A stretch of 64,000 nt of DNA, taken from the sequence record NC_103192.1, one strand, 5' to 3'. Shown here one piece after another: positions 46,946-63,564 of this stretch. Numbering within the stretch: position 1 is the first letter of the stretch; each line of letters starts with the position of its first letter. Made by a program: the position numbers and the translations under genes. The notes under the pieces are model-generated. The model ran no database searches and was not told the origin of the DNA. It was given only the letters and a program-made list of their open reading frames with translations. This DNA comes from a phage.

Positions 46946-46952
46946 CAAGGGG

Positions 46953-46988
46953 TAAATAAAAAGGGGCCAAACGGCCCCTTTCTTTTTA
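46953..46988. terminator. bidirectional intrinsic terminator between convergent operons
   Basis: stem AGGGGCC-AAAC-GGCCCCT flanked by an A-run upstream and T-run downstream. Confidence 0.7.
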
Positions 46989-46991
46989 TAA

Positions 46992-47192
46992 TTAGTAGTA
47001 TTCCCAACACGACCCATCTTCAGACGGCTGGACACGCTTACCTTCATGATCGACATAGGTGTAACCACAGCCTTCACAAATAACAGGTGCTGCATAGCCT
47101 TCCTTCCACTGATCCTCAGTGATCAATCCTTTCAGATCTCCGCAGTCACTACCAAACAACTCTTCAGAACAGTCTTTACAAAAATCAGCCAT
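46992..47192 (-). CDS. small Cys-rich protein (zinc-ribbon-like)
   Basis: 66 aa with CxxC...C and CEGCGY motifs; GGAGA RBS. Confidence 0.45.
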   Translation of the reverse strand: MADFCKDCSEELFGSDCGDLKGLITEDQWKEGYAAPVICEGCGYTYVDHEGKRVQPSEDGSCWEYY

Positions 47193-47261
47193 CTCTATCA
47201 GTCTCCATATTTAACCAATCTATATTACATATTGCCGAAGAAACAGTATTTCATTTCATCA

Positions 47262-47480
47262 TCACAGATCTCCAACAACTTCCCAAATACCCCAGTGAGC
47301 ATCTATATCCTTGATAAAGTATCTTTCTCCACGGTTTGTCCACACACCTATCCCAACTTTACCATCTATCCCATTGTATACATCTGCCTCATACTCTTTG
47401 CCCGGTGTAAAGTGTACACCCATCATAAGGGCTGTTATTCCATTAGGATTTTTAAATTTAACAAATTTTACTTTGCTCAT
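47262..47480 (-). CDS. hypothetical protein
   Basis: 72 aa, AAGGA RBS, tightly packed with neighbours. Confidence 0.4.
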   Translation of the reverse strand: MSKVKFVKFKNPNGITALMMGVHFTPGKEYEADVYNGIDGKVGIGVWTNRGERYFIKDIDAHWGIWEVVGDL

Positions 47481-47481
47481 A

Positions 47482-47811
47482 TTACTTAATCCTTGCAGTT
47501 ACAGTAGCGCTATACCCTATGTAGTTATGAGACATAAAGAATGTAAGCCCTTTAAGTTCAGGATTCTTTCTAAGAAATCGTTTCAATTTTCGAATGCAAT
47601 TAACACCATGATCATAATTTGAGAAATTAAATTTAATACCCTGCTCCATCATAGTACACACTTCTTCATGGGTATGCCATTGTCTATCGTGGTCACAAAA
47701 CCAGTAACCAATACCTTCTTTTTCTTGGATATGCAATCCCCAAAATACTTTATGCATTGGATATTTTGGTTTTCTACCATGATAATGTAGTTTAATATTC
47801 ACATGTGCCAT
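47482..47811 (-). CDS. hypothetical His-rich protein
   Basis: 109 aa, GGAG RBS. Confidence 0.4.
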   Translation of the reverse strand: MAHVNIKLHYHGRKPKYPMHKVFWGLHIQEKEGIGYWFCDHDRQWHTHEEVCTMMEQGIKFNFSNYDHGVNCIRKLKRFLRKNPELKGLTFFMSHNYIGYSATVTARIK

Positions 47812-47844
47812 TTTTTGTTACTCCGTTCTGTATCTGTGATAATG

Positions 47845-47874
47845 AGAATAGCAAACTGGGGTGTGTGCTGTCAA
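47845..47874 (-). promoter_or_regulatory. internal promoter on minus strand TTGACA-18-TATTCT
   Basis: reverse complement of 47869-47874 is TTGACA; -10 is reverse complement of 47845-47850. Confidence 0.4.
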
Positions 47875-47979
47875 CAACATTTTTAAGCGTTTTGGGGAAG
47901 TTTTTTGAAAGGTGGGTGTAATCACAAGAGAGGGTGGAGTTGTTGAAGGCACAGGCCTCTTTTGAGGCCTTAAAATCGA

Positions 47980-48360
47980 TTATGACACTTTGACGTAGCG
48001 CTCTGACAGAGCTGGAAAGCCAAAAGCAGTACCTATACTACCGTATGCTACCCACCATTGAAGTTCATCGTGACACCATTTTCCGATCAGGAAGGTGCTG
48101 GGGTAGCGGGTCAGTATTTTGGCATAAGCTTTAGGATCTGCATCCTCTGGGATAATGATACTTGGAACATCTTTGTTATGACCACAGCAGCAGTTTAGAG
48201 TTTTCAATCCTGCCGCCCATAGACTCATGATAGGCTTAGCCATGCACTTATCAAGGCACACACGTTTTTTGCCGTCACGGAGCTTTTTAGGCACATCAAC
48301 GATAACATTTTGATGCTTGGCACCTTTCACTTTCCAATTATAGGATTTACACTTGCACAT
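47980..48360 (-). CDS. Cys-rich hypothetical protein
   Basis: 126 aa with CKCK...C.DKC...CCCGH motifs suggesting metal binding; GGAGA RBS. Confidence 0.45.
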   Translation of the reverse strand: MCKCKSYNWKVKGAKHQNVIVDVPKKLRDGKKRVCLDKCMAKPIMSLWAAGLKTLNCCCGHNKDVPSIIIPEDADPKAYAKILTRYPSTFLIGKWCHDELQWWVAYGSIGTAFGFPALSERYVKVS

Positions 48361-48518
48361 TTAATCAGTCTCCATCTAGAAAGCAATACTTTACTTAAAG
48401 TCTTTATCACCTGCCACGATTGCATGAATCCACTCATTGTGATGCTCAATAGCGGTGAGATGTAACATGATGTAGTGATCGTCATTGCCAAACATGATAT
48501 GATAGGCTTTGGCAGCAT
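48327..48518 (-). CDS. possible small ORF overlapping the previous gene's 5' end
   Basis: ATG with GGAAG RBS but 34-nt overlap and no recognisable features. Confidence 0.2.
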   Translation of the reverse strand: MLPKPIISCLAMTITTSCYISPLLSITMSGFMQSWQVIKTLSKVLLSRWRLIKCASVNPIIGK

Positions 48519-48566
48519 TTTGATATAACTTCCACATCAGGTAATGATATCTTCGCCTCATGGCTC

Positions 48567-49031
48567 TTACTCCGGTTCAGGATCTGGGTAATCTTCGATA
48601 ATAAAGGGCCATCCGTTCCGCTTAGCCGCAGACTTATACTCGATCTCCTTCATTGCAAACTCTAACTGATTCTTAGCCGGAATACATGCCGGAGAATCAT
48701 CAATCCAGATATCTGGGTAGATATCAAACTGCGCCAGATAGGCTGCCTTCTGGACACCACCAGTATAAAACACACCAACATCGAGATCCTTACGCCAATA
48801 CTCAATGTCTACATTATCTTGAGTAATGAATCGGAAAGTCACAAGGTATACTGTCCACCCTTCCTTTTTCAAGTCCCTAATCAGGCGGGAGAAGATGAAA
48901 GGACTCGCATTAAATGTTCCATCAAAGTCAATGGCAATGATGTGTGTGCCGTGGCGTGTCTCATATGGATTGCTTGTGGTAAGATTGCTGTAGTTAAAAG
49001 GAACTTCTTCCCCGCAGTAGCTGTAGTCCAT
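48567..49031 (-). CDS. HAD-superfamily phosphatase (nucleotidase-like)
   Basis: motif I IAIDFDGTF (DxDGT) and later WIDDS; ATG 49031 with GAAGGTG RBS (track start 49037 is GTG). Confidence 0.5.
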   Translation of the reverse strand: MDYSYCGEEVPFNYSNLTTSNPYETRHGTHIIAIDFDGTFNASPFIFSRLIRDLKKEGWTVYLVTFRFITQDNVDIEYWRKDLDVGVFYTGGVQKAAYLAQFDIYPDIWIDDSPACIPAKNQLEFAMKEIEYKSAAKRNGWPFIIEDYPDPEPE

Positions 49032-49033
49032 AT

Positions 49034-49309
49034 TCACACCTTCTCGTTGATAAATTTACGGGCGGTTTGGTGAGTTGTTTCTGCTGTCTTCAGAATGATA
49101 TTAATCTTATTGTCAAGATCATTCATCTCTGCAGTTAATTCAGGAATCTCTCCGGCATGCATAGTGAAATCATACATAGACATGCCCAGAATCTCATTGA
49201 TTCGGCGGTTGCATTCTGCAGCACGCTGGTTCATTTTCCAAGCTAACACCAGAGCCTCTTGCGTAGCCTCCAGTGCAAAGTCTAATACGTCAGCTTCTTC
49301 TTTCGTCAT
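49034..49309 (-). CDS. hypothetical small helical protein
   Basis: 91 aa. Confidence 0.4.
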   Translation of the reverse strand: MTKEEADVLDFALEATQEALVLAWKMNQRAAECNRRINEILGMSMYDFTMHAGEIPELTAEMNDLDNKINIILKTAETTHQTARKFINEKV

Positions 49310-49364
49310 CTCAGTCTCTCTTGTTGTATTGTTGGTAGGTGCATGAACACCTTATATCTCACTT

Positions 49365-49931
49365 TTATTCAAACTGCAATAGCAAGTCCACCACCGCACT
49401 AGGCCTGTCAACAAATTCCCCAGGCCCACATGCCCATAGAGGGTATCCATCAACATACCGCCATATCCAACCTGCAGTGTGAAGCTCAAGCAGGGCAGTG
49501 CCGTCCTTACTGTCAACCACCCTTTCCCACAGTGTTGGGCAGCGAAGCTTGAGAATCGGGTCCCCGCCCTTATACCCGTCCATGTAGATACCCATTGCAA
49601 AGTTCAGCATCATCTTTTTGTGCACTGATCTTTTACTGAGGGTGCTCATCACTTCCTCTTTGTGAATGTTTGTAAGCTTCTCTTTGGCTACCCGCAGATC
49701 ATTGCAACCATTGTTCAGCAGATCTTCCAGACACTTGATCCGAAGGTCGTGAATGTCTTTGTCGTGTACCGTTGGCACAGGGTCGTAGCGGTATAGCACT
49801 GTTGATACAAGGTTGCTCGGGTGTGGGTCTGACAGCAACCCATAACCCCAATACTCCTCTGTATCTGAAAGGACAAGACACCCAATGTCTCTGTCAAGCT
49901 TTCCTGTGTTGTAAGCCACATTGACCGCCAT
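49365..49931 (-). CDS. hypothetical protein
   Basis: 188 aa, GGAG RBS; no motif recognised. Confidence 0.45.
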   Translation of the reverse strand: MAVNVAYNTGKLDRDIGCLVLSDTEEYWGYGLLSDPHPSNLVSTVLYRYDPVPTVHDKDIHDLRIKCLEDLLNNGCNDLRVAKEKLTNIHKEEVMSTLSKRSVHKKMMLNFAMGIYMDGYKGGDPILKLRCPTLWERVVDSKDGTALLELHTAGWIWRYVDGYPLWACGPGEFVDRPSAVVDLLLQFE

Positions 49932-49933
49932 GA

Positions 49934-50179
49934 CTATAGCTCCACTAGCAAAGTGCTTTCAAAGTGCCGTTCATGCAAACCATTGTAAGGGACCACTTCT
50001 ACAACGCCATCACGGACATATGGGGCCATCATAGTGGTATAATCTCCAAACGGGTTGGTATTGTCACTAACCACAACCACCTTCTGCCCTTCCTTGGCAG
50101 AGTGCCAAATAGATCTGCACTTCATCAGGTGTTCGAGAGCTCCAGGTAAAATTTTGTTACGTTCTTTACGAGTCTTCAT
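49934..50179 (-). CDS. hypothetical protein
   Basis: 81 aa, AAGGAG RBS; start overlaps upstream stop (ATGA). Confidence 0.4.
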   Translation of the reverse strand: MKTRKERNKILPGALEHLMKCRSIWHSAKEGQKVVVVSDNTNPFGDYTTMMAPYVRDGVVEVVPYNGLHERHFESTLLVEL

Positions 50180-50625
50180 AACAGGTATAGCTCCTTATGA
50201 AAGTGATCTTTTAATTTCTCACTGAGAAACTTCTTGATACCTTCCTCTAAAGTGTTTTCGATGTAGTCCAGCTTAACTGCTTCGATGGACATATCATAGA
50301 TCGCCAGCTCTAAGCTGTCAAGTCCCATCATAGCATGAACCATAAGATTTTCATCTTCAGATACATTCAGGGGGCTTCCTATAACATCTGGAGGCAGAAT
50401 AGTTTCCCAATTATTCTGGGTGGTAGTTCTCCCTCCCTCTACTTTACGGCGCAGTTCGAATGTGTTCTTAGTGTAGAACACTTCATAAGAAACGATACGA
50501 CTGTCGCTCTCATAATAAACGAAGTTCAGGTAGGAGCCTAGCCGCAGTCGGCAAACTTCCACCCCAAACCATTGTTTCTTATAAGAATTCAGGCTAATGC
50601 TGTCGCATTCACGTTTGCTCAACAC
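50176..50625 (-). CDS. hypothetical protein
   Basis: 149 aa, GTG start with AAGGAGAG RBS. Confidence 0.4.
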   Translation of the reverse strand: MLSKRECDSISLNSYKKQWFGVEVCRLRLGSYLNFVYYESDSRIVSYEVFYTKNTFELRRKVEGGRTTTQNNWETILPPDVIGSPLNVSEDENLMVHAMMGLDSLELAIYDMSIEAVKLDYIENTLEEGIKKFLSEKLKDHFHKELYLL

Positions 50626-50641
50626 GGCTCTCTCCTTCTTG

Positions 50642-50875
50642 TTAATCTTCGTAAATAATGATTTCTGCTTTAGGTTTTCGTGCTTTCAGGTCCAGCTCTA
50701 TCCAGTGCACCATCGCTGTTTCAAGAAAAACAGCCTGGATGCATCCGTCTTCAGCGTGCCCTACCAGCATAACAAGATCTTCACATTCATCATCTGCATC
50801 ACGGACATACAAGATCTCTCCAGATTCAAAGTCTTTCACAACCTGATTGCTGGATAATTTACGAATTTTTGCCAT
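50642..50875 (-). CDS. hypothetical acidic protein
   Basis: 77 aa, GAGGG RBS. Confidence 0.4.
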   Translation of the reverse strand: MAKIRKLSSNQVVKDFESGEILYVRDADDECEDLVMLVGHAEDGCIQAVFLETAMVHWIELDLKARKPKAEIIIYED

Positions 50876-50876
50876 A

Positions 50877-51140
50877 TCAGAAACCCTCTAAAAAGCTCTT
50901 GTAGAAAATAATCTCAGTATCCACACCAGTCACGATCTTGTCGTTCCAGATTTCATCTGTAAGATAGGTGTCAAAACGCAGCACCTGTGTGGTATTGTCA
51001 CACATCCACTCGGCTGTGACCATGGCAAAAATCTTGGCATCTTCATTATCTGGTGTGAATGTTACCACCTCGCCGCACTTAAACTTTTCGATAGGTTGAG
51101 TGTTAGCTTTCGGTTCTGCGATAGTGATTTTCGTGGTCAT
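50877..51140 (-). CDS. hypothetical protein
   Basis: 87 aa; TAATG overlap with upstream gene. Confidence 0.4.
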   Translation of the reverse strand: MTTKITIAEPKANTQPIEKFKCGEVVTFTPDNEDAKIFAMVTAEWMCDNTTQVLRFDTYLTDEIWNDKIVTGVDTEIIFYKSFLEGF

Positions 51141-51397
51141 TACTCTTCCTCCATAGTTTCACCAAATACTTCGATACGAGCATCGAGCTCGGTTGCTTTC
51201 AGCTCACCAACAAAATCTTTTAGTTCTTTCTCGTCCAGATCGTAAGCCCACACACAAGAAGAACATGCAGATTTCACAATCAGCAGCGTAGATACACGAC
51301 CTGACTCCGTGATCATGCTCACAATGGTTCCTACAGGGAACGTGTTGATAGCTTTTTTAACTGGGCGTTCAGCTTTGATTACTACCTCTGTTGCCAT
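51140..51397 (-). CDS. hypothetical protein
   Basis: ATG at 51397 with GAGAGGA RBS preferred over track start 51406. Confidence 0.4.
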   Translation of the reverse strand: MATEVVIKAERPVKKAINTFPVGTIVSMITESGRVSTLLIVKSACSSCVWAYDLDEKELKDFVGELKATELDARIEVFGETMEEE

Positions 51398-51412
51398 AAA
51401 TAACATCCTCTC

Positions 51413-52873
51413 TTATTTAGCGTACCCGATCAATTCTACAGTTTTCCCAAAGCTTGGGATATAATTTTTATTATACCCTTCGGTGAGAACCCATAAAGTA
51501 TCGTACTTTTTCCACTTGTTGTCAACAACCTTTTGTTCAAAGTTGTGCTCAAAGTAGAGGTCGGTCAGGACGATGACATCTTTTGCATTTGGTATGTTAG
51601 CGTCCAGATACTCGAACACGCAAGCGGCTGTTGTGCCCCATGTTGAGTGGACCTCGTAGTTGATCATCTCGTCGATGTTCCCGCGAGTGTATACTTTAAC
51701 CTCTCCAACCTCAGTTGACCAACAGAACATCGTAACCTTGAACTCTTTATACAGATTGCACAACCCAGTGATCTCATTGAACATTTTCTTTAAAGTTCTT
51801 TGTGAGATCGATCCAGAAACGTCTAAAGCCACCACAATATCTATAGTGTTTTCCGGATTACGACCAGGAACAACAACGTGCTGATTCTTGTTTATAGCTC
51901 CAACTTTTCGCATTGTGCTGGTCAAAGACCCAGATCGGCGACCAGGTTTTCTGTAGGTTAGTTCAGCCTTTCGTTTAGACAGCATACGTTGCTTAATGAT
52001 GTCTATATAATTGATTACAGGCTTGCCTCTGTTTTTGACAAACTCGCGCACAGCCTCAGGGCAACGACCTCCGGAAGCTTGCATTGCTGCTTCCAACATG
52101 TCACCAGAGTCCTGCATGGCCTGATCTTTATCAGATTGACTGATCACGGGTTGTGGCTGATCATACCCCATAGCCTTTCCAAGATCGTCACTTGTGCCAC
52201 CGTTCCCACTCATGTGATCATCGGTTTGTCGTTTATCTCCTTGAGAGTTCTCGCCTTTACCGTTCTTACTTTTACCACTATTCTGATCTCTTTGCTTATC
52301 AAGAACTGCATAGACGTTCTCAGCAATCCATCCATGGAACCTCATGTCACAGTAGCAACTAGCTAAGAAGCCAAAAGGCTTACCTTTTACGAACGTAGTG
52401 CTTTTCCCCTTCGGAAAGAAAACACAAGGGGGCTTGCTAAAGTCAACCACAAGACCTGTGTTGATAACATGATCACAGGCAATATTGAACAGTTCCGGCT
52501 CAAAGCTTTTACCACGGACCAGATGATCGCAGATAATATGCCCCACTTCATGCGATAGAAGAAAGGCCACCTCTTTCACAGATTTGGGGGAATAGAAAAC
52601 CTCAGCCATCTCAAACTGCTCGTCAGTCAGAGATGCTTTAAGAATGGTTTTGCGCTCATCAGCCAGTCCCATAATGAACTCGGGACTGTAATAAATGCGT
52701 TTATGGTCTGTTGCCATGGTGGAGCACCATGTGTGGTTTTCTACGAACTGCAGCCCTGACAATAGTGTGCCATAAAACGGCAGTTTTTCAAGAAGATACA
52801 TGCGTGCTGCCTGCAGCATTCGCAAGGCGTCATCTTTTTGTGCGGCAATGATTTCTGAACTTCTGCTATCCAT
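51413..52873 (-). CDS. VWA-domain protein with N-terminal HExxH metallopeptidase-like domain
   Basis: zinc motif SHEVGHIICDH; C-terminal MIDAS-like VVALDVSGSIS; ATG 52873 with GGAG RBS (track start 52894 is TTG inside a hairpin). Confidence 0.6.
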   Translation of the reverse strand: MDSRSSEIIAAQKDDALRMLQAARMYLLEKLPFYGTLLSGLQFVENHTWCSTMATDHKRIYYSPEFIMGLADERKTILKASLTDEQFEMAEVFYSPKSVKEVAFLLSHEVGHIICDHLVRGKSFEPELFNIACDHVINTGLVVDFSKPPCVFFPKGKSTTFVKGKPFGFLASCYCDMRFHGWIAENVYAVLDKQRDQNSGKSKNGKGENSQGDKRQTDDHMSGNGGTSDDLGKAMGYDQPQPVISQSDKDQAMQDSGDMLEAAMQASGGRCPEAVREFVKNRGKPVINYIDIIKQRMLSKRKAELTYRKPGRRSGSLTSTMRKVGAINKNQHVVVPGRNPENTIDIVVALDVSGSISQRTLKKMFNEITGLCNLYKEFKVTMFCWSTEVGEVKVYTRGNIDEMINYEVHSTWGTTAACVFEYLDANIPNAKDVIVLTDLYFEHNFEQKVVDNKWKKYDTLWVLTEGYNKNYIPSFGKTVELIGYAK

Positions 52874-52885
52874 TAAAACTCCAGA

Positions 52886-52902
52886 AGGGGCCAACGGCCC
52901 CT
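52886..52902 (-). terminator. hairpin between minus-strand genes (partial terminator/processing site)
   Basis: AGGGGCC-AAC-GGCCCCT inverted repeat with U-run downstream on the minus strand. Confidence 0.35.
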
Positions 52903-52906
52903 GTCA

Positions 52907-53896
52907 TTATTTAACGTGCTTGAAAATACCAGCCAACTCGGTCATTGTCATGCGAGTGGTCTTCATAAGGTCTGTCATAGCCTTCTCCATAATTGGAGAT
53001 ACTACCATAAAGTTACCTTTGGTGAAACCTTTATTCCAGTCGGTCACTAATAACGGTTTAAGTCCTGCCCCGAAACGCTCACCAGTTAAAGCACAGCATT
53101 TTCGAATGTACGTGCTCTTAAATTGGCTGAATGACAGATCAACTTTCATACCTGCATCGTAGAACGTCTGGCAATAGAAAGTGTAGGCTTTAGCAATCTC
53201 AACATCGTCAGGCAGTGCAGGAACCTCTTCTGTAAGCCCTTCTTCGACCTTTTGAGGCTCTTTTTCCTCTTCGTGAGCCTGTTGCGTCATTTCTTCAATC
53301 TCTTCTGTTACAGGCTCATTTACGATGTCAGAAATGTGCTTGTTGGCTTCACGATTAGCCATGAAGTTTTTAAAATCCTGCATTGGTGACATATCTTCCT
53401 CCCATTCTTCGTCAAAGAGTGCCAGTTTATCCTCTTCCGTTCCATATTGCAAGATGAAATCTTCAAAAGTGTAATCACCTTTCAATTTCTCCATGCGCTC
53501 TTCGCTCAGGTGAAGCATCATCTGCTGGACAATTTTTCGATCAGTTTTGTCTTTAATCAAGACTGCGGTCTTTTTATCTACCAGACAGTCCTTCAGGGAG
53601 TTGCACCTTAACCCAACCACACAACAGTTATCAATTGCGTAAGGACCTTCATCATCTATCCGCTCTAAGGATGGATAGAAAGGATTGCCCAACCCGTTTT
53701 CATCTGTGTGCATGTCAAAAGGTATAAGGGTATAGTCGCACACCCCCTCTCCTAAAAGTTTTTTACCAAATAGGAGGTATTCTTCCCATGACAGGTTGAA
53801 CTCTATATCTCGTTTCCGTGCATTATTTTGTTTGCGTCTGTATTTTTTGAGCAGGCGCTCTAACTCTTCTGGTGTATAATATTTTTCAAGATTCAT
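52907..53896 (-). CDS. HNH-like nuclease-domain protein (two Cys-rich modules, acidic linker)
   Basis: segment GVCDYT...HTDENG...SLERIDDEGPYAIDNCCVVGLRCNSLK fits an HNH-like C...N...CxxCN..K pattern; second Cys module near C-terminus; ATG 53896 preferred (53962 is TTG without RBS). Confidence 0.4.
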   Translation of the reverse strand: MNLEKYYTPEELERLLKKYRRKQNNARKRDIEFNLSWEEYLLFGKKLLGEGVCDYTLIPFDMHTDENGLGNPFYPSLERIDDEGPYAIDNCCVVGLRCNSLKDCLVDKKTAVLIKDKTDRKIVQQMMLHLSEERMEKLKGDYTFEDFILQYGTEEDKLALFDEEWEEDMSPMQDFKNFMANREANKHISDIVNEPVTEEIEEMTQQAHEEEKEPQKVEEGLTEEVPALPDDVEIAKAYTFYCQTFYDAGMKVDLSFSQFKSTYIRKCCALTGERFGAGLKPLLVTDWNKGFTKGNFMVVSPIMEKAMTDLMKTTRMTMTELAGIFKHVK

Positions 53897-53927
53897 AAGT
53901 CGTCTCTTGTGCTTTGTAGGTGAAGAA

Positions 53928-53956
53928 ATCTTATCAAGTGCCTCAACAGATGTCAA
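53928..53956 (-). promoter_or_regulatory. leftward promoter TTGACA-17-TAAGAT
   Basis: -35 is reverse complement of 53951-53956, -10 is reverse complement of 53928-53933. Confidence 0.5.
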
Positions 53957-53969
53957 CCTCAAAAACGTG

Positions 53970-53998
53970 TTGACTTTACTCTAAATCCACGATATAGT
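53970..53998 (+). promoter_or_regulatory. rightward promoter TTGACT-17-TATAGT
   Basis: -35 at 53970-53975, -10 at 53993-53998. Confidence 0.5.
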
Positions 53999-54038
53999 GC
54001 ACCCATTCTAAAGAAAACGAACACAGGATCACTTAATC

Positions 54039-56267: not shown

Positions 56268-56537
56268 ATGTTATACCAGCAATATGAACTTCGTGCAGAA
56301 AAAGAGTTAAATTTTGACAAAGATATTCACAGATATTATTATGGGAAAGTTAGAGGGCAAGCAAGAAAGTGTACTCCAACACTCTTTTATGCCAGCAGAC
56401 GACTAGCGCCAGAAGAGGCAACAGCAGAAAGGGTTGCATATGGCTGGAGAGTTGCGTATGATATTGACAGATCCGATGTGATGTCTGTTTTGGAAAACTT
56501 TGAAAACACTTACACACAAGTAGAGGACTTTTACTAA
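56268..56537 (+). CDS. hypothetical protein
   Basis: 89 aa, AAGGAG RBS. Confidence 0.4.
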   Translation: MLYQQYELRAEKELNFDKDIHRYYYGKVRGQARKCTPTLFYASRRLAPEEATAERVAYGWRVAYDIDRSDVMSVLENFENTYTQVEDFY

Positions 56538-57721
56538 TGTCAAGAAACGTATTCGAAAGTGGTCAAATCACTGTCCGCGAGTTGCCAGCTATTATTCAAT
56601 TTGCCCAGCGTCATAACCGATCTGTCCTGATTTTAGGACCGATGGGTGTGGGGAAGAGCCAGGTGATGAAGCAGATTGCTGATAATATGTTCGGTGAGCG
56701 AGATGACAACCTGGTTGACGTGCGGCTGTCAGATAAAGATCCTGCTGACTTGTCTGGACTACCTATCCCTGTAGAGGCAGATGGAACTACACGCACAGTG
56801 TTTGCAATTCCAGAATTTTGGCCTGCAGACTCGGACTGGAGCGGAATTATCTTTCTGGATGAGCTTACTCATGCAGATAACTACCTGCAGAAGGTTGCAA
56901 TGCAAATTATGCTCGACCACAAGTGCGGCACCTATGCATTTCCTAAGGGCTCTGTTTTTGTAGCTGCAGGTAACCGTTCTACAGATGGTACGGTTCTTTC
57001 GGCGCTCGAAGCTCCTCTGGCTAACCGCTTTATCATTGTAGAAGTTACAAGCAATGCAGAGGTGTTTATTGAGGACTATGCATTCCTTAATGGGGTGCAC
57101 TCCTCTGTAATTGGATATTTGAAAAGAGTTCCATCAGCTATTGATAATTATGAGGCTATGGCTGAGATTAATTGTCCATCTTTTGCCACACCGCGATCTT
57201 GGGTTGCTGCATCTGATATCTTGCACGATTTTGACAGCGGTATTATTTCTGACGCTATGGCCCGTGTTCTTCTGCAAGGTGCTATTGGTCACACTGCAGC
57301 GGTAGAGATCTGGACTTACCACACCAAGAAACGCAATTTACCGGAAATCGGTCGGATTATGGCAGGTGGCTGCAAAGAATACGTAGGTCCTAAGCAGCCA
57401 GACATTTTGTGGATTCTTGGATCTGAAGGTTGTATCGCTATTCGTAATATGATGGAAAATGCAAGTATCTCAGACGAAGATCTTGTCAGCTGCGTGGCAA
57501 ACTTCCTCGATTTCCTTTGGGAAAACTTCAAGGACGAGAACCGAGATTTTGTATTCTCAGTCTTTATGGCGATGATGAAACCTAATGCCTTAGGAAATGC
57601 CTTGCTTATCGGTAAAGGGCGTGACAAGATTGTTGCTCAGCTGATCAAAGCATACCCAAACCTGATGAAGATTGTAAAAGAGTTTGGTGAAGAGTTTAGC
57701 GCCATTTTGGCTAAAGCTTAA
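56537..57721 (+). CDS. MoxR-like AAA+ ATPase (AAA_5 type)
   Basis: Walker A LILGPMGVGKSQ, Walker B IIFLDELTHA, sensor-1 FVAAGNRS, Arg-finger region LEAPLANRF. Confidence 0.65.
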   Translation: MSRNVFESGQITVRELPAIIQFAQRHNRSVLILGPMGVGKSQVMKQIADNMFGERDDNLVDVRLSDKDPADLSGLPIPVEADGTTRTVFAIPEFWPADSDWSGIIFLDELTHADNYLQKVAMQIMLDHKCGTYAFPKGSVFVAAGNRSTDGTVLSALEAPLANRFIIVEVTSNAEVFIEDYAFLNGVHSSVIGYLKRVPSAIDNYEAMAEINCPSFATPRSWVAASDILHDFDSGIISDAMARVLLQGAIGHTAAVEIWTYHTKKRNLPEIGRIMAGGCKEYVGPKQPDILWILGSEGCIAIRNMMENASISDEDLVSCVANFLDFLWENFKDENRDFVFSVFMAMMKPNALGNALLIGKGRDKIVAQLIKAYPNLMKIVKEFGEEFSAILAKA

Positions 57722-57730
57722 GGGGGTTGT

Positions 57731-58111
57731 ATGGCTAAAGTAGGTAAGCGGGGAAACTACCTGGTGGTATTGACCGAGGAGCCGGAGAAGGAGTACGAAT
57801 GCAGCTCCACTTGCGTGATCGATATCCGAGAAAAAGATGTAGATGAAATCTGGTTTAAAATATTGGACGCTTGCGATAGCAGTGATTATTTCTTCATCTA
57901 TGTCAACGATAAGGCTGGGTTCTTCCATGACGACGGAGAGTTGCCGTATGAAATCTATGAACTTGTAGAGGCTTGCCATCGTGGAGATGCGGAGTTATTT
58001 GGCTTACGGCTGAAAAGCGGTAAATTCTTCTACCAAGACGAGTGCATGAATCTTCACAACTTCGTAGAGGGAACTTGCAACGATGGAGAGATTTTGGCAC
58101 ACTACGACTAA
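57731..58111 (+). CDS. hypothetical Cys-containing acidic protein
   Basis: 126 aa, AGGGGG RBS. Confidence 0.4.
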   Translation: MAKVGKRGNYLVVLTEEPEKEYECSSTCVIDIREKDVDEIWFKILDACDSSDYFFIYVNDKAGFFHDDGELPYEIYELVEACHRGDAELFGLRLKSGKFFYQDECMNLHNFVEGTCNDGEILAHYD

Positions 58112-58123
58112 TTTCTAAGACCA

Positions 58124-58151
58124 CCCCCGCTTCGGCGGGGATTTTCTATTT
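58124..58151 (+). terminator. rho-independent terminator with UUCG tetraloop
   Basis: CCCCCGC-TTCG-GCGGGG then ATTTTCTATTT. Confidence 0.7.
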
Positions 58152-58160
58152 GGAGCTATT

Positions 58161-58661
58161 GTGAAAATTAAAATCTTTGCTATTATTTTGAGCGCATTTT
58201 TATCGCTGCCTGTTGTTGCAGCACCCAAACAAAAAGTATATCACACCTGCAAGCCATCGGATACTAAGGAGAACATTCTGGCATGCAATATCTACAGGGA
58301 AGCCAGAGGAGATGGCACGATGGGTATGCTGGCATCAGGGTTTGCCACACTAAACAGGAAATCTCACCCCAAATACCCGGACACCATAAGAAAGATTGTC
58401 TACCAACCTAACCAGTTTTCGTGGACAAACCACGGCAAAACTTTTAAGGTGACAGAAAAAGATTCATGGGATCACGCTAAAAGTCTTGCAAAGATGCTTC
58501 TAAAGGTCTATAATAACAACCATGTTGCATACATGGCTATGGATATAACAGGTGGAGCAACGCACTATCATACAACAAAAGTACGACCGAAATGGGCAAA
58601 AAAGATGCAGAGGACAGCTCAATTCGGGAGTCATATCTACTACAAGGAGCGCAATAAATGA
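58161..58661 (+). CDS. secreted SleB-like cell wall hydrolase (endolysin candidate)
   Basis: N-terminal signal-peptide-like MKIKIFAIILSAFLSLPVVAAP; core NIYREARGDG...ATLNR...PDTIRKIVYQPNQFSW fits the Hydrolase_2 (SleB) pattern. Confidence 0.6.
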   Translation: MKIKIFAIILSAFLSLPVVAAPKQKVYHTCKPSDTKENILACNIYREARGDGTMGMLASGFATLNRKSHPKYPDTIRKIVYQPNQFSWTNHGKTFKVTEKDSWDHAKSLAKMLLKVYNNNHVAYMAMDITGGATHYHTTKVRPKWAKKMQRTAQFGSHIYYKERNK

Positions 58662-60640
58662 TTGTAAACAGTAATGAAACTAAAGCAGTACTAACCGGAA
58701 ATATGGAGGTCACCAGGGGCTCAATTTCTCTGAACAAAGAGACTTTTGGGCTAATCATTAAAGGGATTTACGAAGATAAGGTGCTGGCAAGCTGCCGTGA
58801 ACCAATCTTCAATGCCGTGGACTCCCATGTTGAGTCTGGACGAGGTGATGTACCGATCATTATTCACTCTCCTACAGACCTTGAACCATACTTCTTTGTG
58901 CAGGACGTTGGATTGGGCATGTCAGAAGAGATGGTCCGCAACACTTTCATGAACCTCGGGGAGTCAACCAAGCGCAACAGCAACGCTCTGGTAGGTAATA
59001 AAGGTGTAGGTTCAAAGGCCCCGTTCAGCATGGTGGACACTTTCGATGTGATCAGTGTGCACAACGGTGTTGAAAGCACATATCTGTTGTTCTTGGATCA
59101 GGGTATCCCAAACGTTACCAAGATCCGCGAGCGGAAGACTGAAGAGCACAACGGGGTAAAAGTTCAGTTCCATGTTAAGAAAGAGCATGTCCTGAAATAT
59201 CGCACTGCTATTGCATCGTGCTTACGCTATGCGAAGTTTCCGTTCACCGTCACCGACCCTATGACCAGTAAAATGCTGGAAGGTGACAAGGTTGAGGCGC
59301 AGTATCACTACGAGAAAGATGGTTGGAAAATGACTATCCTAAAGGGCTATACCAGCTCTGACGAGAGTCGTGTGGTAATGGGGCACCAACCTTACCGATC
59401 TAAATTTCTGGAAACATTGACAGACTACCCTGCAATCTGTGTAGAGATCCCTATCGGGGATTGCAATATTAACCCAGGGCGTGAATGGACTATAGAGGGT
59501 CACGACGATGGTGGATTCCAAGAGCGTCTGGAGGCTTTTGTCAAAGAGGGTATCCGCCTACGTGGGGCAGAAGTTGTTGCGGAATTAGAGACAGCAAAAA
59601 CATCCTCAGAAGCACGCGAGATGATGAAGAACAGTGGAGTGTTCGGGCACATCTTCGGTAAAAATTTTATGTGGGAACGATGGGAAGAGACAGGACTAGG
59701 AAGCTTGGGAGATTGCGAGATCTTCGCTGGCGGCTTAAATAAAGGCCGTATAGGTTACGCCTGCTACGGAAAGGTAGAATTCTTACGGGGAGTCTATTTA
59801 GTATTTAACGACGGAGACGGCAAATATAACCGAAATAAGTGTAACTACTTAAGCGAGATCACCGGACGCAACGTTTTCTATTGCCGAAACACGGATCTGG
59901 TGAAAGAGTTTAAAGAGGCGGCACACCATCCTTTCTTTGCAGATACGGTCAAATTGTTATCAGAGCTCCCTCGCCGACCTGCGAAGAAAGGTGAAACAAA
60001 AACTCATTATGAGCCAGGCTATTGGGTTAAAAAACTTGAGAAGGATGGTTACTTCCGTCGTGAGCGTATTACTAAGGCAGAGTTCAAGAAGATTAAGCAC
60101 TGCATTCCTTATGAGGGTGATATCCAACGTGGAAGTTGTTGGCTGGGACAGCTAAGTAACATCTACCAGCAAAATTATGACCGTGTGCGTGCGGCACTCC
60201 AGATTCCTGAAGGGGAAGATCTGTACCTGGTATCAGAATCTCGTCTGCTTTGGACTGATCCTGATTGCCAGTATGTTACAGAGAAAAATGTGGAACATTT
60301 GTTGAAAGAGGACGCCTGGAAATTCTTACTGACTCGCGCAGCAAATGAAACTTCATATGACAGCCTGTATAGACAATTAGGGAAAATTATCCCCATGCAA
60401 GATTTTGGAAATTATCGGCCACATTTTCACAAGTGGGAAGGTAACACCGCGTGGAAGCACAGTGAGCTAAATCATCGTGCCAAAATCTTAATCGCCAACC
60501 GAGTCAAGTGCGGGAAGGCCTATATTGCAAGATTGGAAAAGAAATATCCACTTTTGAAGCATGTGGGCTTGAAATATTGGGACACTCCTGCTATGATTGA
60601 ATACCGTGAACTGATCGACGCAAAGAATAACACCAAATAA
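58658..60640 (+). CDS. rIIA: rIIA-like protein with N-terminal GHKL-type ATPase fold
   Basis: 660 aa; N-box-like EPIFNAVDS, G1-like FVQDVGLGM, G2-like GNKGVGSKAPF; ATGA overlap with upstream gene. Confidence 0.55.
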   Translation: MIVNSNETKAVLTGNMEVTRGSISLNKETFGLIIKGIYEDKVLASCREPIFNAVDSHVESGRGDVPIIIHSPTDLEPYFFVQDVGLGMSEEMVRNTFMNLGESTKRNSNALVGNKGVGSKAPFSMVDTFDVISVHNGVESTYLLFLDQGIPNVTKIRERKTEEHNGVKVQFHVKKEHVLKYRTAIASCLRYAKFPFTVTDPMTSKMLEGDKVEAQYHYEKDGWKMTILKGYTSSDESRVVMGHQPYRSKFLETLTDYPAICVEIPIGDCNINPGREWTIEGHDDGGFQERLEAFVKEGIRLRGAEVVAELETAKTSSEAREMMKNSGVFGHIFGKNFMWERWEETGLGSLGDCEIFAGGLNKGRIGYACYGKVEFLRGVYLVFNDGDGKYNRNKCNYLSEITGRNVFYCRNTDLVKEFKEAAHHPFFADTVKLLSELPRRPAKKGETKTHYEPGYWVKKLEKDGYFRRERITKAEFKKIKHCIPYEGDIQRGSCWLGQLSNIYQQNYDRVRAALQIPEGEDLYLVSESRLLWTDPDCQYVTEKNVEHLLKEDAWKFLLTRAANETSYDSLYRQLGKIIPMQDFGNYRPHFHKWEGNTAWKHSELNHRAKILIANRVKCGKAYIARLEKKYPLLKHVGLKYWDTPAMIEYRELIDAKNNTK

Positions 60641-60650
60641 GGAGACAGCT

Positions 60651-61856
60651 ATGATTTTCATCTACGAACATTTCAAAACTCGTAAAGAAGCACGTGACCG
60701 CCGTGCAGAGCTTGAGAAGAAGGGTTTCACATGCGCTATTGAGAAAGGTAACACAACCTGGACACTGGCAGTGGGTGCCCCAGAGTTGTTCGATCCTGAC
60801 CGTGACAGCGTCTGCTACACCCGTGAGGATTTTGAAACCCGTGAAGAGGCCCGTTTATTTCGATATGGGCTGGAAGATAACGGTAAGTACGCCATGATCT
60901 TAGACTTAGGAGAAGGTTCCGTTAAACGTTGGGGCGTGGTATATCCGCTGTGTGTTGTTCACGGTGTAGGGTTCACTGGGGTAGCAATCAAGTCAGAAGA
61001 ACCTTTAGTAGAAGTAAAAGACCCGGTGCTGGAGGTGGTGAGCAGTGTGTCTCAGCAACAGACCCGAAGCATCGAGCCTTTGGTGGTTATTTGCGGAGAA
61101 CTCCTCCAGATCACCTGTAACGAAGGCATTTTTGAAATTCGCCGCAGTGAAAGTGAGGAAGTTTACCAGAAAGTTTTCGACCATATCTCTGTTCAGGAAT
61201 ATGATGAGGCAATTGGTGAAATCCTTGTCTGGCTGGAACGCAAGAATGAGTTCACCACACTTGCAGACAACCTGATCATGAAAGATGGCAAGCTCTACTA
61301 CTACGGTGTAGAGATGCGATCCACCATTGCAAAGAAAATTGAGAAAGATTATGCAGATGGAACACTGGATGACCGCTATGTGAAATTCCTCGTTCGCCTG
61401 CTACGCAATCCTTCTGCAAAATCTGTAAACATGCTCTACGATTTTATGCAGGCCAACGATATCCAGATTGCAGAAGATGGTCGAATCATTTGCTACAAAG
61501 GGGTTCAGTTTAACGGCAGCAAATGGGTGGATTGGCACAGTGGTAAAGTTCCACAATACCAGGGTGCTTTTGTATCCATGCCTCGTAACTTTGTAGAGGA
61601 TGATCCGGAAGCTGCGTGCTCCTATGGCTTACACTGCGCCAGCAAAGAGTATGCAAAGAGCTACGGCACTGTAATGATGGTTATGGTTGATCCTGCAGAT
61701 GTGGTTAGTGTGCCATACCAACACAATAGCGCTAAGTGCCGTGCATGCCGCTATGAGATTGTGGTAGCTCCGGAAGCACGCAAAGATGGAGACCCTATCG
61801 AATATGTAGTTGATCGTGACGGTAACACTATCGACATTCTTTACGAGGAGGCGTAA
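60651..61856 (+). CDS. rIIB: rIIB-like protein
   Basis: 401 aa; C-terminal region (LYDFMQANDIQIAEDG...GLHCASKEYAKSYG...VMVDPADVVSVPYQHNSAKCRACRYEIVV) resembles the conserved rIIB core as recalled from T4; adjacent to rIIA-like gene. Confidence 0.55.
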   Translation: MIFIYEHFKTRKEARDRRAELEKKGFTCAIEKGNTTWTLAVGAPELFDPDRDSVCYTREDFETREEARLFRYGLEDNGKYAMILDLGEGSVKRWGVVYPLCVVHGVGFTGVAIKSEEPLVEVKDPVLEVVSSVSQQQTRSIEPLVVICGELLQITCNEGIFEIRRSESEEVYQKVFDHISVQEYDEAIGEILVWLERKNEFTTLADNLIMKDGKLYYYGVEMRSTIAKKIEKDYADGTLDDRYVKFLVRLLRNPSAKSVNMLYDFMQANDIQIAEDGRIICYKGVQFNGSKWVDWHSGKVPQYQGAFVSMPRNFVEDDPEAACSYGLHCASKEYAKSYGTVMMVMVDPADVVSVPYQHNSAKCRACRYEIVVAPEARKDGDPIEYVVDRDGNTIDILYEEA

Positions 61857-63226
61857 TGGAAAAAGGGCAGTATGATGTAGGCACAGATGCTGCCCTCGTT
61901 GCAATCATGAGTGGTGAGAATGTCTTCGTTTCAGGACCTGCAGGTTGTGGGAAGACGTATCTCATCAACATGATCCAGTCAATGTATGGAGACTCTTGCA
62001 TAACGGTTGCCCCGACAGGGGTAGCCGCTTTAAACGTTAATGGAGCAACAGCACACCGAACATTCGATCTTGCAGCAGGTGTGAGCATGGAGTCGGACTG
62101 GACCGCAATAAGGGCAAAAACAGCAAAGCCTTTGAAAAGCAAGGCATTTACCATCCTAATTATCGATGAAATCTCTATGATCCGTGCTGATAAGTTTATA
62201 GAGATGGATAGGAAACTCCGCTTCCTTCGAAAAAATGACAAACCTTTCGGAGGCATACAGGTCATATTGTTTGGCGATTTTTACCAGGCACCTCCTGTTG
62301 TCTCTTCTATGGAGAAGGAAGCCTACTTCAACTTCTACCATACGGACCTGTGTTGCTATACCGAATCTTGGAAAGAGCTTGACCTCCACAACATAGCCCT
62401 AGTAGATCAGTTCCGACAGGAGTCTATTCGATTTGCCACAATGCTCAACTGTGTTCGTGAGGGTCGTCGCATAAAAGAGGTTGTAGCAGAACTTAATGCT
62501 CGCTGTTACAAAGGCGGTGTACCAACAGACGCTCTCACAATTTGCGCTACCAACAAACAAGCGGAGGAAGTGAACAGAAGGTTCTATGATGCCATCAACG
62601 CCCCAGAGAAGGTATACACTGGTGAAATGAAAGGTAAGTTTCCCTCCACCCTGCCAGTTGAGCAGGAGATGAAGTTGAAAATTGGCATGAAGGTCATGAT
62701 AACCGCTAACGATGTTGACCCGACTCACAAAGTACCTTATTATGTTAACGGAACACGTGCCACAATTGTTAAATTTAAGAACAAGGCGGTGGTGGTAGAG
62801 CTTGAAGATGGAACACAGGTTGACATAGAGCAGAGGTTGTGGGAGAATAACGAGTATAAGCCATCTCAGAGATACAACATTGCAGAAAGGAAGATGGAGA
62901 AGTTTATAGAGAGGGTAGTGATTGGGTCATACAAGCAACTTCCTCTGAAATCTGGGTACGCCGTAACATCTCATAAAAGTCAAGGACTTACGCTAGATTG
63001 TTACAACCTAGACCTTGGAAAGAACGGGGCTTTCTCTCCTGGGATGACGTATGTTGCTTTGAGTCGAGTTAAGACAATACAAGGAATAAACTTGTTGCGT
63101 CCACTAAGAGAAGTTGACATTATTGTTGACCCGCGAGTCGTAGAGTTTTACAATACAACATTCCCTGACTTAGACAAAATTGTCAGGAAAGATTTTGAAA
63201 CCAGAACTGAAGAGGGGGACGTATGA
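61856..63226 (+). CDS. SF1B DNA helicase (Dda/PIF1/RecD-like)
   Basis: Walker A GPAGCGKT, Walker B IIDEISM, motif ILFGDFYQAPPV. Confidence 0.65.
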   Translation: MEKGQYDVGTDAALVAIMSGENVFVSGPAGCGKTYLINMIQSMYGDSCITVAPTGVAALNVNGATAHRTFDLAAGVSMESDWTAIRAKTAKPLKSKAFTILIIDEISMIRADKFIEMDRKLRFLRKNDKPFGGIQVILFGDFYQAPPVVSSMEKEAYFNFYHTDLCCYTESWKELDLHNIALVDQFRQESIRFATMLNCVREGRRIKEVVAELNARCYKGGVPTDALTICATNKQAEEVNRRFYDAINAPEKVYTGEMKGKFPSTLPVEQEMKLKIGMKVMITANDVDPTHKVPYYVNGTRATIVKFKNKAVVVELEDGTQVDIEQRLWENNEYKPSQRYNIAERKMEKFIERVVIGSYKQLPLKSGYAVTSHKSQGLTLDCYNLDLGKNGAFSPGMTYVALSRVKTIQGINLLRPLREVDIIVDPRVVEFYNTTFPDLDKIVRKDFETRTEEGDV

Positions 63227-63564
63227 GTTTGTGGAGAAATATAGTTAACTACGTGTGCGGCAATCCAACTCCTGAAGAGAAGGATGTTGTGATTCACGAT
63301 TTTACTAAAAGATCTCGTGAAAAAGATCTACTGCTAACAAAGGTGACTGATAAAGATCCTGCAGTAGGGGACTGGGCAGGTTTTGCGTTCACATCGGACA
63401 AATACACCTTTAACAAAGGTGACTATCTTGTTGTGGATTTTAACGAGGACATCGAGGGTGCTGAACCTTACTATCAGACCCTTATCGTTGCAGGGTGTGT
63501 TAATCTCTCTGCAGGTATGCACAGTTTGATTCTTTTTGAGCTTGACTCTGAAGACCTCCAGTAG
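63223..63564 (+). CDS. hypothetical protein
   Basis: 113 aa, GAGGGGGA RBS, ATGA overlap with helicase gene. Confidence 0.4.
   Translation: MSLWRNIVNYVCGNPTPEEKDVVIHDFTKRSREKDLLLTKVTDKDPAVGDWAGFAFTSDKYTFNKGDYLVVDFNEDIEGAEPYYQTLIVAGCVNLSAGMHSLILFELDSEDLQ

Follow-up and report, generated by a model that had tools for sequence, protein, structure and literature searches.

The genes examined here lie in a 64,000-nucleotide stretch of phage DNA (sequence record NC_103192.1), referred to below as the window. The first gene (58658..60640, + strand) starts with ATG and encodes a protein of 660 amino acids (aa), and the second (60651..61856, + strand), also with an ATG start, encodes a protein of 401 aa. 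A sequence-only reading had placed two open reading frames (ORFs) on the + strand at 58658-60640 and 60651-61856 and proposed that they form an rIIA/rIIB-like pair; both were found exactly there. The rII genes are historically famous for Benzer's fine-structure mapping and for the triplet code. In the window, the rIIA stop and the rIIB start are separated by a gap of 10 nucleotides (nt), within which a Shine-Dalgarno sequence for rIIB, AAGGAGA (60639..60645, + strand), was identified by reading the sequence. Ribosome-binding sites are present for both genes, and the ORFs on the opposite strand within them are all 73 aa or shorter. The two genes are close together in a single predicted operon.

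The 660-aa and 401-aa proteins are almost certainly members of the rIIA and rIIB families. A search against family profiles, which the sequence-only reading had put forward as a check, matched the 660-aa protein to phrog_612 'RIIA' (E=6.5e-124, aa 1-656 against profile positions 1-722) and the 401-aa protein to phrog_609 'RIIB' (E=1.2e-61, aa 132-375). The founding members of both families from phage T4 (NC_000866), rIIA (NP_049616, 725 aa) and rIIB (NP_049889, 312 aa), match the same PHROGs 612 and 609, with E=9e-250 in the case of T4 rIIA. By BLASTP, the window rIIA is 28% identical to T4 rIIA over aa 1-190 (E=3e-21) and the window rIIB is 37% identical to T4 rIIB over aa 172-371 (E=4e-39). 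Profile-sequence alignment by hhalign extended these relationships to aa 1-309 of rIIA (probability 99.95) and aa 151-373 of rIIB (probability 99.9).

Since the Pfam copy used for the scan was without the PF26926 (Phage_T4_rIIB) model, rIIB had no Pfam rIIB match in that scan; PF26926 is, however, precomputed on P0001, the 99%-identical cluster representative of rIIB, and on all of the listed homologues. Pfam matches to DUF7003, SACS and influenza CM1 were sub-threshold and were disregarded. The NCBIfam and PADLOC collections hold no rII model and gave no matching known defence-system protein: rIIB had no matches, and rIIA had only far-sub-threshold matches related to GHKL proteins (sacsin, HSP90, BbrUII/HgiDII, TmtA). 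A sequence search of the PDB identified no solved relative of rIIA or rIIB, the best E-values being 0.07 for a chance match to topoisomerase III-beta and 0.10 for a weak GHKL match to TRAP1.

The region 58161-63226 was compared by megablast with 50,697 phage records, 120 of which match at 90-97% identity. The best match over this 5-kb stretch is 96.7%, and the collection contains no identical record. Most of the 120 records are named Escherichia phages and, where taxonomy was looked up, they belong to Vequintavirus, the rV5-like myoviruses. The genes rIIA and rIIB from other Vequintavirus phages (rV5, slur16, FV3, Murica and the BASEL phages MaxTheCat, DrSchubert and others) are the same genes in an identical organisation, with 94-97% DNA identity and 98-99% protein identity to those in the window and differing by point substitutions only. 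Many of these relatives carry the labels rIIA/rIIB 'lysis inhibitor', 'membrane integrity protector' or 'protector from prophage-induced early lysis', and the PHROG and RefSeq label for both proteins is 'lysis inhibitor'. As near-identical records are already annotated as rIIA/rIIB, the pair is a known landmark of the rV5-like phage group, routinely annotated in a well-sampled genus. The genomes of this group are conventionally opened at rIIA (PMC4591320).

Some labels in public records are at odds with this picture. Clear rIIB (and rIIA) homologues are mislabelled or uninformatively labelled in AP018813.1 (T2, 162904-163410), MZ502379.1 (Shinka, 161238-161744), OK040790.1 (Pumpernickel, genes 228-229) and OL631479.1 (ECML-10), where the labels seen were 'ribonucleotide reductase beta subunit', 'rIII lysis inhibitor', 'hypothetical protein' and 'SPOR domain-containing protein'. 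In addition, 16 unannotated 'Campylobacter phage' records (including MG065655, MG065658, MG065659, MG065661, MG065662 and MG065674), with Campylobacter jejuni as the stated host, are ~96-99% identical to E. coli rV5-like phages across this region, and their host label looks doubtful.

Both genes are intact and under strong purifying selection. Against slur16, 99.5 synonymous and 16.5 non-synonymous differences were counted in rIIA (dS 0.28, dN/dS 0.038), and 35.5 and 3.5, respectively, in rIIB (dS 0.15, dN/dS 0.025). The high identity to slur16 together with the low dN/dS excludes chance ORFs. That the two ORFs are decaying, non-functional remnants or chance ORFs is extremely improbable; nothing was found in favour of this explanation, and both ORFs are full length, collinear with those of ~120 relatives, equipped with ribosome-binding sites and intact in all of their catalytic and signature residues. 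Non-functionality is thus excluded by the selection and conservation analyses.

The rIIA protein may be considered in terms of a GHKL ATPase with a transducer-like domain (aa ~25-310) and a family-specific C-terminal region (aa ~310-660). The GHKL-type ATPase motifs noted by the sequence-only reading were recovered by a regular-expression scan at 58799..59020 (+ strand). They consist of the N-box (E48xxxN52xxD55), the G1 motif (D83xG85xG87) and the G2 motif, or ATP-lid (G113xxG116xG118, continuing to K120). The Pfam HATPase_c_3 profile matches aa 50-147 above its cut-off (E=1.8e-8, 35 bits against 25). An invariant R275-E276 pair (59480..59485, + strand) falls in the second, transducer-like domain and aligns with the 'SRE' of T4 rIIA.

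The GHKL motif residues and the R275-E276 pair are invariant in an alignment of 19 homologues (A2) and in a second alignment (A4) of 11 very divergent rIIA proteins, among them those of T4, RB43, an N4-like podovirus, Streptomyces, Microbacterium and Xanthomonas jumbo phages, a Citromicrobium siphovirus and a Suspvirus (Ounavirinae) phage. There are 20 invariant positions across the 11 proteins of A4, including R47, E48, N52, D55, H57, D83, G85, S103, K105, G113, G116, G118, K120, R275 and E276. The predicted ATP-binding and catalytic residues of rIIA are intact and universally conserved, and R275 is a candidate sensor of the gamma-phosphate.

The GHKL fold was confirmed on an AF2 model of rIIA. 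The highest scoring structural matches were TRAP1 (17.1), GRP94 (16.1), ParE (16.0), the phage T6 topoisomerase II ATPase domain (15.8), MORC2 (15.5), SMCHD1 (14.7) and MutL (14.6), with histidine kinases at 8-9. Since the alignments span ~250-320 residues for the top matches as opposed to ~110 for the histidine kinases, the first ~310 residues of the modelled rIIA look like a two-domain ATPase and transducer module of the Hsp90/GyrB/MutL/MORC class. The resemblance to the GHL/MORC-class GHKL ATPases (Hsp90/TRAP1, GyrB/ParE, the T6 topoisomerase II ATPase, MutL, MORC2/3 and SMCHD1) is confined to this module. Sequence identity is just 9-16%, the C-terminal 350 residues of rIIA are unrelated to any member of the class, and client-binding, DNA-gate and endonuclease domains were not detected. 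A Pfam scan detected no DNA-binding domain in rIIA. The protein looks soluble, and no transmembrane segment was predicted (Kyte-Doolittle 19-residue maximum 0.93).

The rIIB protein is composed of an N-terminal module, a linker and a conserved core. The sequence-only reading had described the C-terminal region as resembling rIIB; the resemblance holds and reaches well beyond the extreme C-terminus, covering aa ~150-373. The core (61092..61769, + strand; aa ~148-373) is shared with aa 87-306 of T4 rIIB and bears the signature MPR..V..(x)CSxGLH..Y..P.DVV.VP..K.R..Y. Twelve positions are invariant across 11 divergent rIIB proteins (F246, L262, G277, C323, G326, H328, Y334, P348, D350, P355, K362 and R364), and the window rIIB carries all 12. 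The predicted model of rIIB has a pLDDT of 72. When the core was searched against a viral predicted-structure library, 31 matches were obtained with E<=0.001, all of them phage proteins ranging from 147 to 1049 residues; the named ones are rIIB or a synonym, except for one 'Transposase'. This core of ~220 residues has no relative among solved structures.

The N-terminal module of rIIB (60651..60956, + strand) is lineage-specific and is made up of two beta-alpha-beta-beta repeats, aa 3-42 and aa 54-102, that are weakly SPOR-like and share the motif F-x-T/S-R-x-E/D-A-R ... W-x-V. The internal repeat score is 44 compared to 20.1±3.8 in shuffled sequences, and none of 1000 shuffles (0/1000) reached 44. 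The module is followed by a linker (60957..61076, + strand; aa ~103-142) that is predicted to be disordered (pLDDT 26-29) and is variable and gapped in alignment A1.

The likeness of this module to a SPOR domain (PF05036) consists of a similar beta-alpha-beta(-beta) unit and a score around the Pfam cut-off of 21, the first repeat scoring 19.2 bits when the whole protein is scanned and 23.4 bits when a fragment is. The alignment covers only aa 8-42 of rIIB against profile positions 12-49 of a domain of ~76 residues, and the rIIB homologues P0006, P0075 and P0081 (37-50% identical) have no SPOR match. One GenBank record labels rIIB as a 'SPOR domain-containing protein'. With neither a signal peptide nor a transmembrane segment at the rIIB N-terminus (MIFIYEHFKTRKEARD), the periplasmic location expected of a SPOR protein is not indicated. 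The module is SPOR-like in shape only. An exhaustive phmmer search with the module returned only four representatives, essentially close rIIB relatives and one repeat-rich surface protein. The designation of a new domain family was rejected because four representatives are too few, and the match to one of them, P0153, was probably caused spuriously by its Fib_succ_major repeats.

The surface-protein-like sequence among the four, P0154 (1340 aa), contains many repeats of ~37 residues at aa ~400-760 ('K.EA...KAELEK.GY.V.V'). The N-terminal repeat of rIIB is closely similar to them, and they match both the Pfam SPOR domain and the DAHP-synthase ferredoxin-like domain, which suggests that the rIIB repeat is a generic small beta-alpha-beta unit. 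The Kyte-Doolittle maximum of rIIB (1.69) falls at aa 95-113 in a non-conserved stretch that is modelled as a beta-strand leading into the low-confidence linker, and as a result this segment was rejected as a membrane anchor.

The N-terminus is also where rIIB departs from T4. Both rIIB proteins have the common core with all 12 universal invariant residues, and both rIIA proteins have the GHKL and second-domain module with identical catalytic motifs. In contrast, the double SPOR-like repeat and disordered linker of the window rIIB (~145 aa) stand in the place of an HTH-like segment of ~85 aa in T4, where HTH_7, HTH_28 and HTH_29 score just under their Pfam cut-offs at aa 7-50. No Pfam match to a helix-turn-helix (HTH) was obtained for the window rIIB. 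Since rIIB proteins differ widely in their N- and C-terminal extensions, the missing T4-type HTH is no argument against membership. In this family a constant core is combined with end modules that vary, the rV5-type module being one variant. HTH-like segments just under the Pfam cut-offs were also seen at the C-terminal ends of the rIIB proteins of RXM (aa 323-358) and Xoo-sp13 (aa 314-348). A further sequence, P0005 (498 aa, from one 3.3-kb ENA contig), joins TPR repeats to a 98%-identical rIIB C-terminal half, probably through chimeric assembly rather than a true fusion.

The rIIB core was identified by tblastn in 2,864 of the 50,697 phage records (5.6%), and a frequency of ~5% of phages has been published (PMC13434031). 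At each of the six divergent loci examined (Daubenski, Xoo-sp13, Pumpernickel, LUZ7, PC79-13 and RXM), rIIB is immediately preceded by an rIIA-type gene in the same orientation. The order of rIIA followed by rIIB is the same in T4, in metagenomic relatives at 37-50% identity, and in RB43, where the two are fused. The RB43 (NC_007023) ORF001c 'rIIA-rIIB' (YP_238977; 1-3150, - strand) is a single ORF of 1049 aa with an rIIA-like N-terminus and an rIIB-like C-terminus. The window rIIA matches aa 30-181 of this protein (E=3e-25) and the window rIIB matches aa 874-1040 (E=3e-28). Thus, both modules are present in the same order as the window genes; however, RB43 encodes one polypeptide whereas the window has two genes with a stop codon and the 10-nt spacer between them. 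The fusion explains why phrog_609 ('RIIB') also matches GHKL domains, and it supports physical cooperation of rIIA and rIIB, with the caveat that it may be a sequencing artefact.

The rII pair is flanked by two genes with which it overlaps. Upstream is a SleB-like cell-wall hydrolase (58161..58661, + strand; Pfam Hydrolase_2, E=2.1e-19) that starts with GTG and has a hydrophobic, signal-peptide-like N-terminus. Its stop codon overlaps the rIIA start (ATGA), and it differs from its slur16 counterpart by 17 synonymous and 0 non-synonymous differences. Downstream is a Pif1/Dda-like helicase (61856..63226, + strand; Pfam PIF1, E=9.2e-33; phrog_325, E=2.5e-111) whose ATG overlaps the rIIB stop codon (TAATG). 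The neighbours of the T4 rII genes are different, namely topoisomerase gene 60 and denB.

A hydrolase is also found upstream of rIIA in L006 and L007, relatives of the Klebsiella-phage type, and is absent in L005. A Pif1/Dda-like helicase is present in all three relatives (L005, 7228-8616; L006, 7236-9518; L007, 7236-8543), and the window shares with two further diverged lineages a helicase directly 3' of rIIB with overlapping stop and start codons; the rIIB proteins of these lineages are 37-50% identical. The six divergent phages examined show no linkage of rII to either the hydrolase or the helicase, and the helicase linkage is absent in T4 and in N4-like, Streptomyces, Xanthomonas and other phages. 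As linkage to rII is not universal, the two neighbours are treated as lineage context and not as parts of the system, and the hydrolase does not belong to an rII family.

A putative terminator, identified by consensus scan and sequence as a strong GC hairpin (CCCCGCTTCGGCGGGG) followed by a T-run (58125..58140, + strand), appears to mark the 5' boundary of the hydrolase-rIIA-rIIB-helicase block. It lies just 20 nt 5' of the hydrolase start codon, and no good sigma-70-type promoter was found between the two. The sigma-70 promoter scan yielded 17 sites, a count that chance accounts for (13.2±3.6 expected), and the promoter-like sites inside the block, at 58486-58514 and 60569-60597, are for this reason not put forward as promoters. 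Scanning 57500-63500 with Rfam gave no matches, and no tRNAs were found within the window. Two genes upstream of rIIA, at 56537-57721 on the + strand, is a MoxR-like AAA+ ATPase (phrog_1297, E=8.5e-110) for which the Pfam AAA matches are weak only. Further away, at ~46000-54000, the GC/AT skew flips sign and the larger ORFs are on the minus strand; this part is a divergently transcribed block in a window that is otherwise + strand.

With regard to function, the T4 and T6 proteins provide the basis for a model. The T4 rIIA and rIIB genes are needed only when RexAB is present and are otherwise dispensable (PMC8594841; 10.1101/2025.11.20.689424). A Lysobacter gasdermin (CARD) system is triggered by RIIB, which is both necessary and sufficient for this and is toxic when produced on its own (PMC10312443). 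The role in exclusion and defence evasion that the sequence-only reading had suggested, with a mechanism still unclear, is consistent with these studies (PMC8594841, PMC10312443, 10.1101/2025.11.20.689424). By analogy, the pair would be a dispensable accessory module made during infection that keeps the infected cell from being killed by abortive-infection systems of the RexAB type, which would depolarise the membrane in response to phage replication intermediates. RIIB itself could, in turn, be the signal sensed by other defences such as the gasdermin/CARD systems. From the RB43 fusion and the constant adjacency of the two genes, rIIA and rIIB are expected to work as a complex, in which rIIA would probably be an ATP-driven dimerising clamp or a chaperone-like motor and rIIB would probably be its partner with a variable targeting module.

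An intact rIIA/rIIB pair in an rV5-like phage is, taken as a whole, a very probable reading of the locus, and this confidence weighs identity above function. That the role of the pair in rV5-like phages is protection against abortive infection as in T4 has about an even chance of being correct, and several observations weigh against it. Identity to T4 is only 28% for rIIA (aa 1-190) and 37% for the rIIB core, and beyond aa ~310 the rIIA protein aligns to T4 through the PHROG profile only. The rIIB N-terminus is unlike that of T4, and its targets may differ. The T4 rII proteins have been reported to be inner-membrane associated, a property that is not reflected in the window sequences, for which no transmembrane segment is predicted. 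ATP hydrolysis by rIIA and formation of the rIIA/rIIB complex are predictions. Finally, in the BASEL study, in which only wild-type phages were used, the Vequintavirinae were not among the few RexAB-sensitive phages (PMC8594841). The same study found Vequintavirinae phages to be sensitive to Fun/Z (PMC8594841).

If the pair were instead part of the replication and recombination machinery, rIIA would serve as a GHKL DNA clamp resembling MutL, MORC and topoisomerases and would act with the Pif1/Dda-like helicase. On this view the evasion of defences would be a side effect, arising for instance when replication intermediates are hidden from the RexA-like sensors that detect them. The best structural matches of rIIA do include type II topoisomerase ATPase domains, MutL, MORC and SMCHD1, yet Hsp90-family chaperones score as high as or higher than these DNA enzymes. 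While the overlap of the helicase gene with rIIB recurs in two diverged lineages and the rII genes of T4 and RB43 adjoin topoisomerase II genes, the helicase linkage is absent in six other divergent phages. Similarly, the HTH-like segments of the T4 rIIB N-terminus and of some rIIB C-termini, all just under the Pfam cut-offs, are set against an rV5-type rIIB without an HTH and an rIIA in which no DNA-binding domain was detected. Since T4 rII is also dispensable without RexAB, a primary role in replication is considered unlikely.

A role in lysis timing or envelope integrity would pair the rII proteins with the secreted SleB-like hydrolase and have the SPOR-like repeats of rIIB bind peptidoglycan. 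It has in its favour the PHROG and RefSeq name 'lysis inhibitor', the overlap of the hydrolase gene with the rIIA start together with its position upstream of rIIA in L006 and L007, and an rIIB N-terminus that comes near the Pfam SPOR cut-off and is called a 'SPOR domain-containing protein' in one GenBank record. However, export signals are absent from the rII proteins and the linkage to the hydrolase is inconsistent, and this role is judged very unlikely.

A bolder proposal for rIIB, and quite an unlikely one, is that the protein is a modular adaptor or enzyme. The invariant Cys, His, Asp, Lys and Arg residues of its core (C323, H328, D350, K362, R364) could then be a catalytic or metal-binding site, and its end module, which differs between lineages, would direct the rIIA ATPase to different targets in the cell. 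The end modules in question would be the SPOR/RNP-like repeats in rV5-like phages and N- or C-terminal HTH-like segments in T4, PC79-13, Xoo-sp13 and RXM. If this were true, rV5-type rII would counter different host systems from T4 rII, envelope-linked targets would be possible given the presumably co-transcribed, secreted SleB-like hydrolase, and a swap of targeting modules would provide a handle on what the rII proteins bind.

Returning to the identification of the locus as an intact rIIA/rIIB pair, the window instance is not a new kind of system. It is a standard rII pair under strong selection in rV5-like phages, and its departures from the T4 archetype, which are common to all close relatives, are limited to the rIIB N-terminal module and the local neighbours. 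Its value is modest in that it supports the correct annotation of rII genes in public records and provides a residue list and domain boundaries for rII biochemistry in a second model phage. The remaining interest is in the mechanism of rII in general and not in this instance of it. For the family as a whole, the analysis documents the universal rII residues and the lineage differences in the accessory module of rIIB. The rII pair is central to the current arms race between phages and their hosts: it counters RexAB, and RIIB triggers gasdermin/CARD systems.

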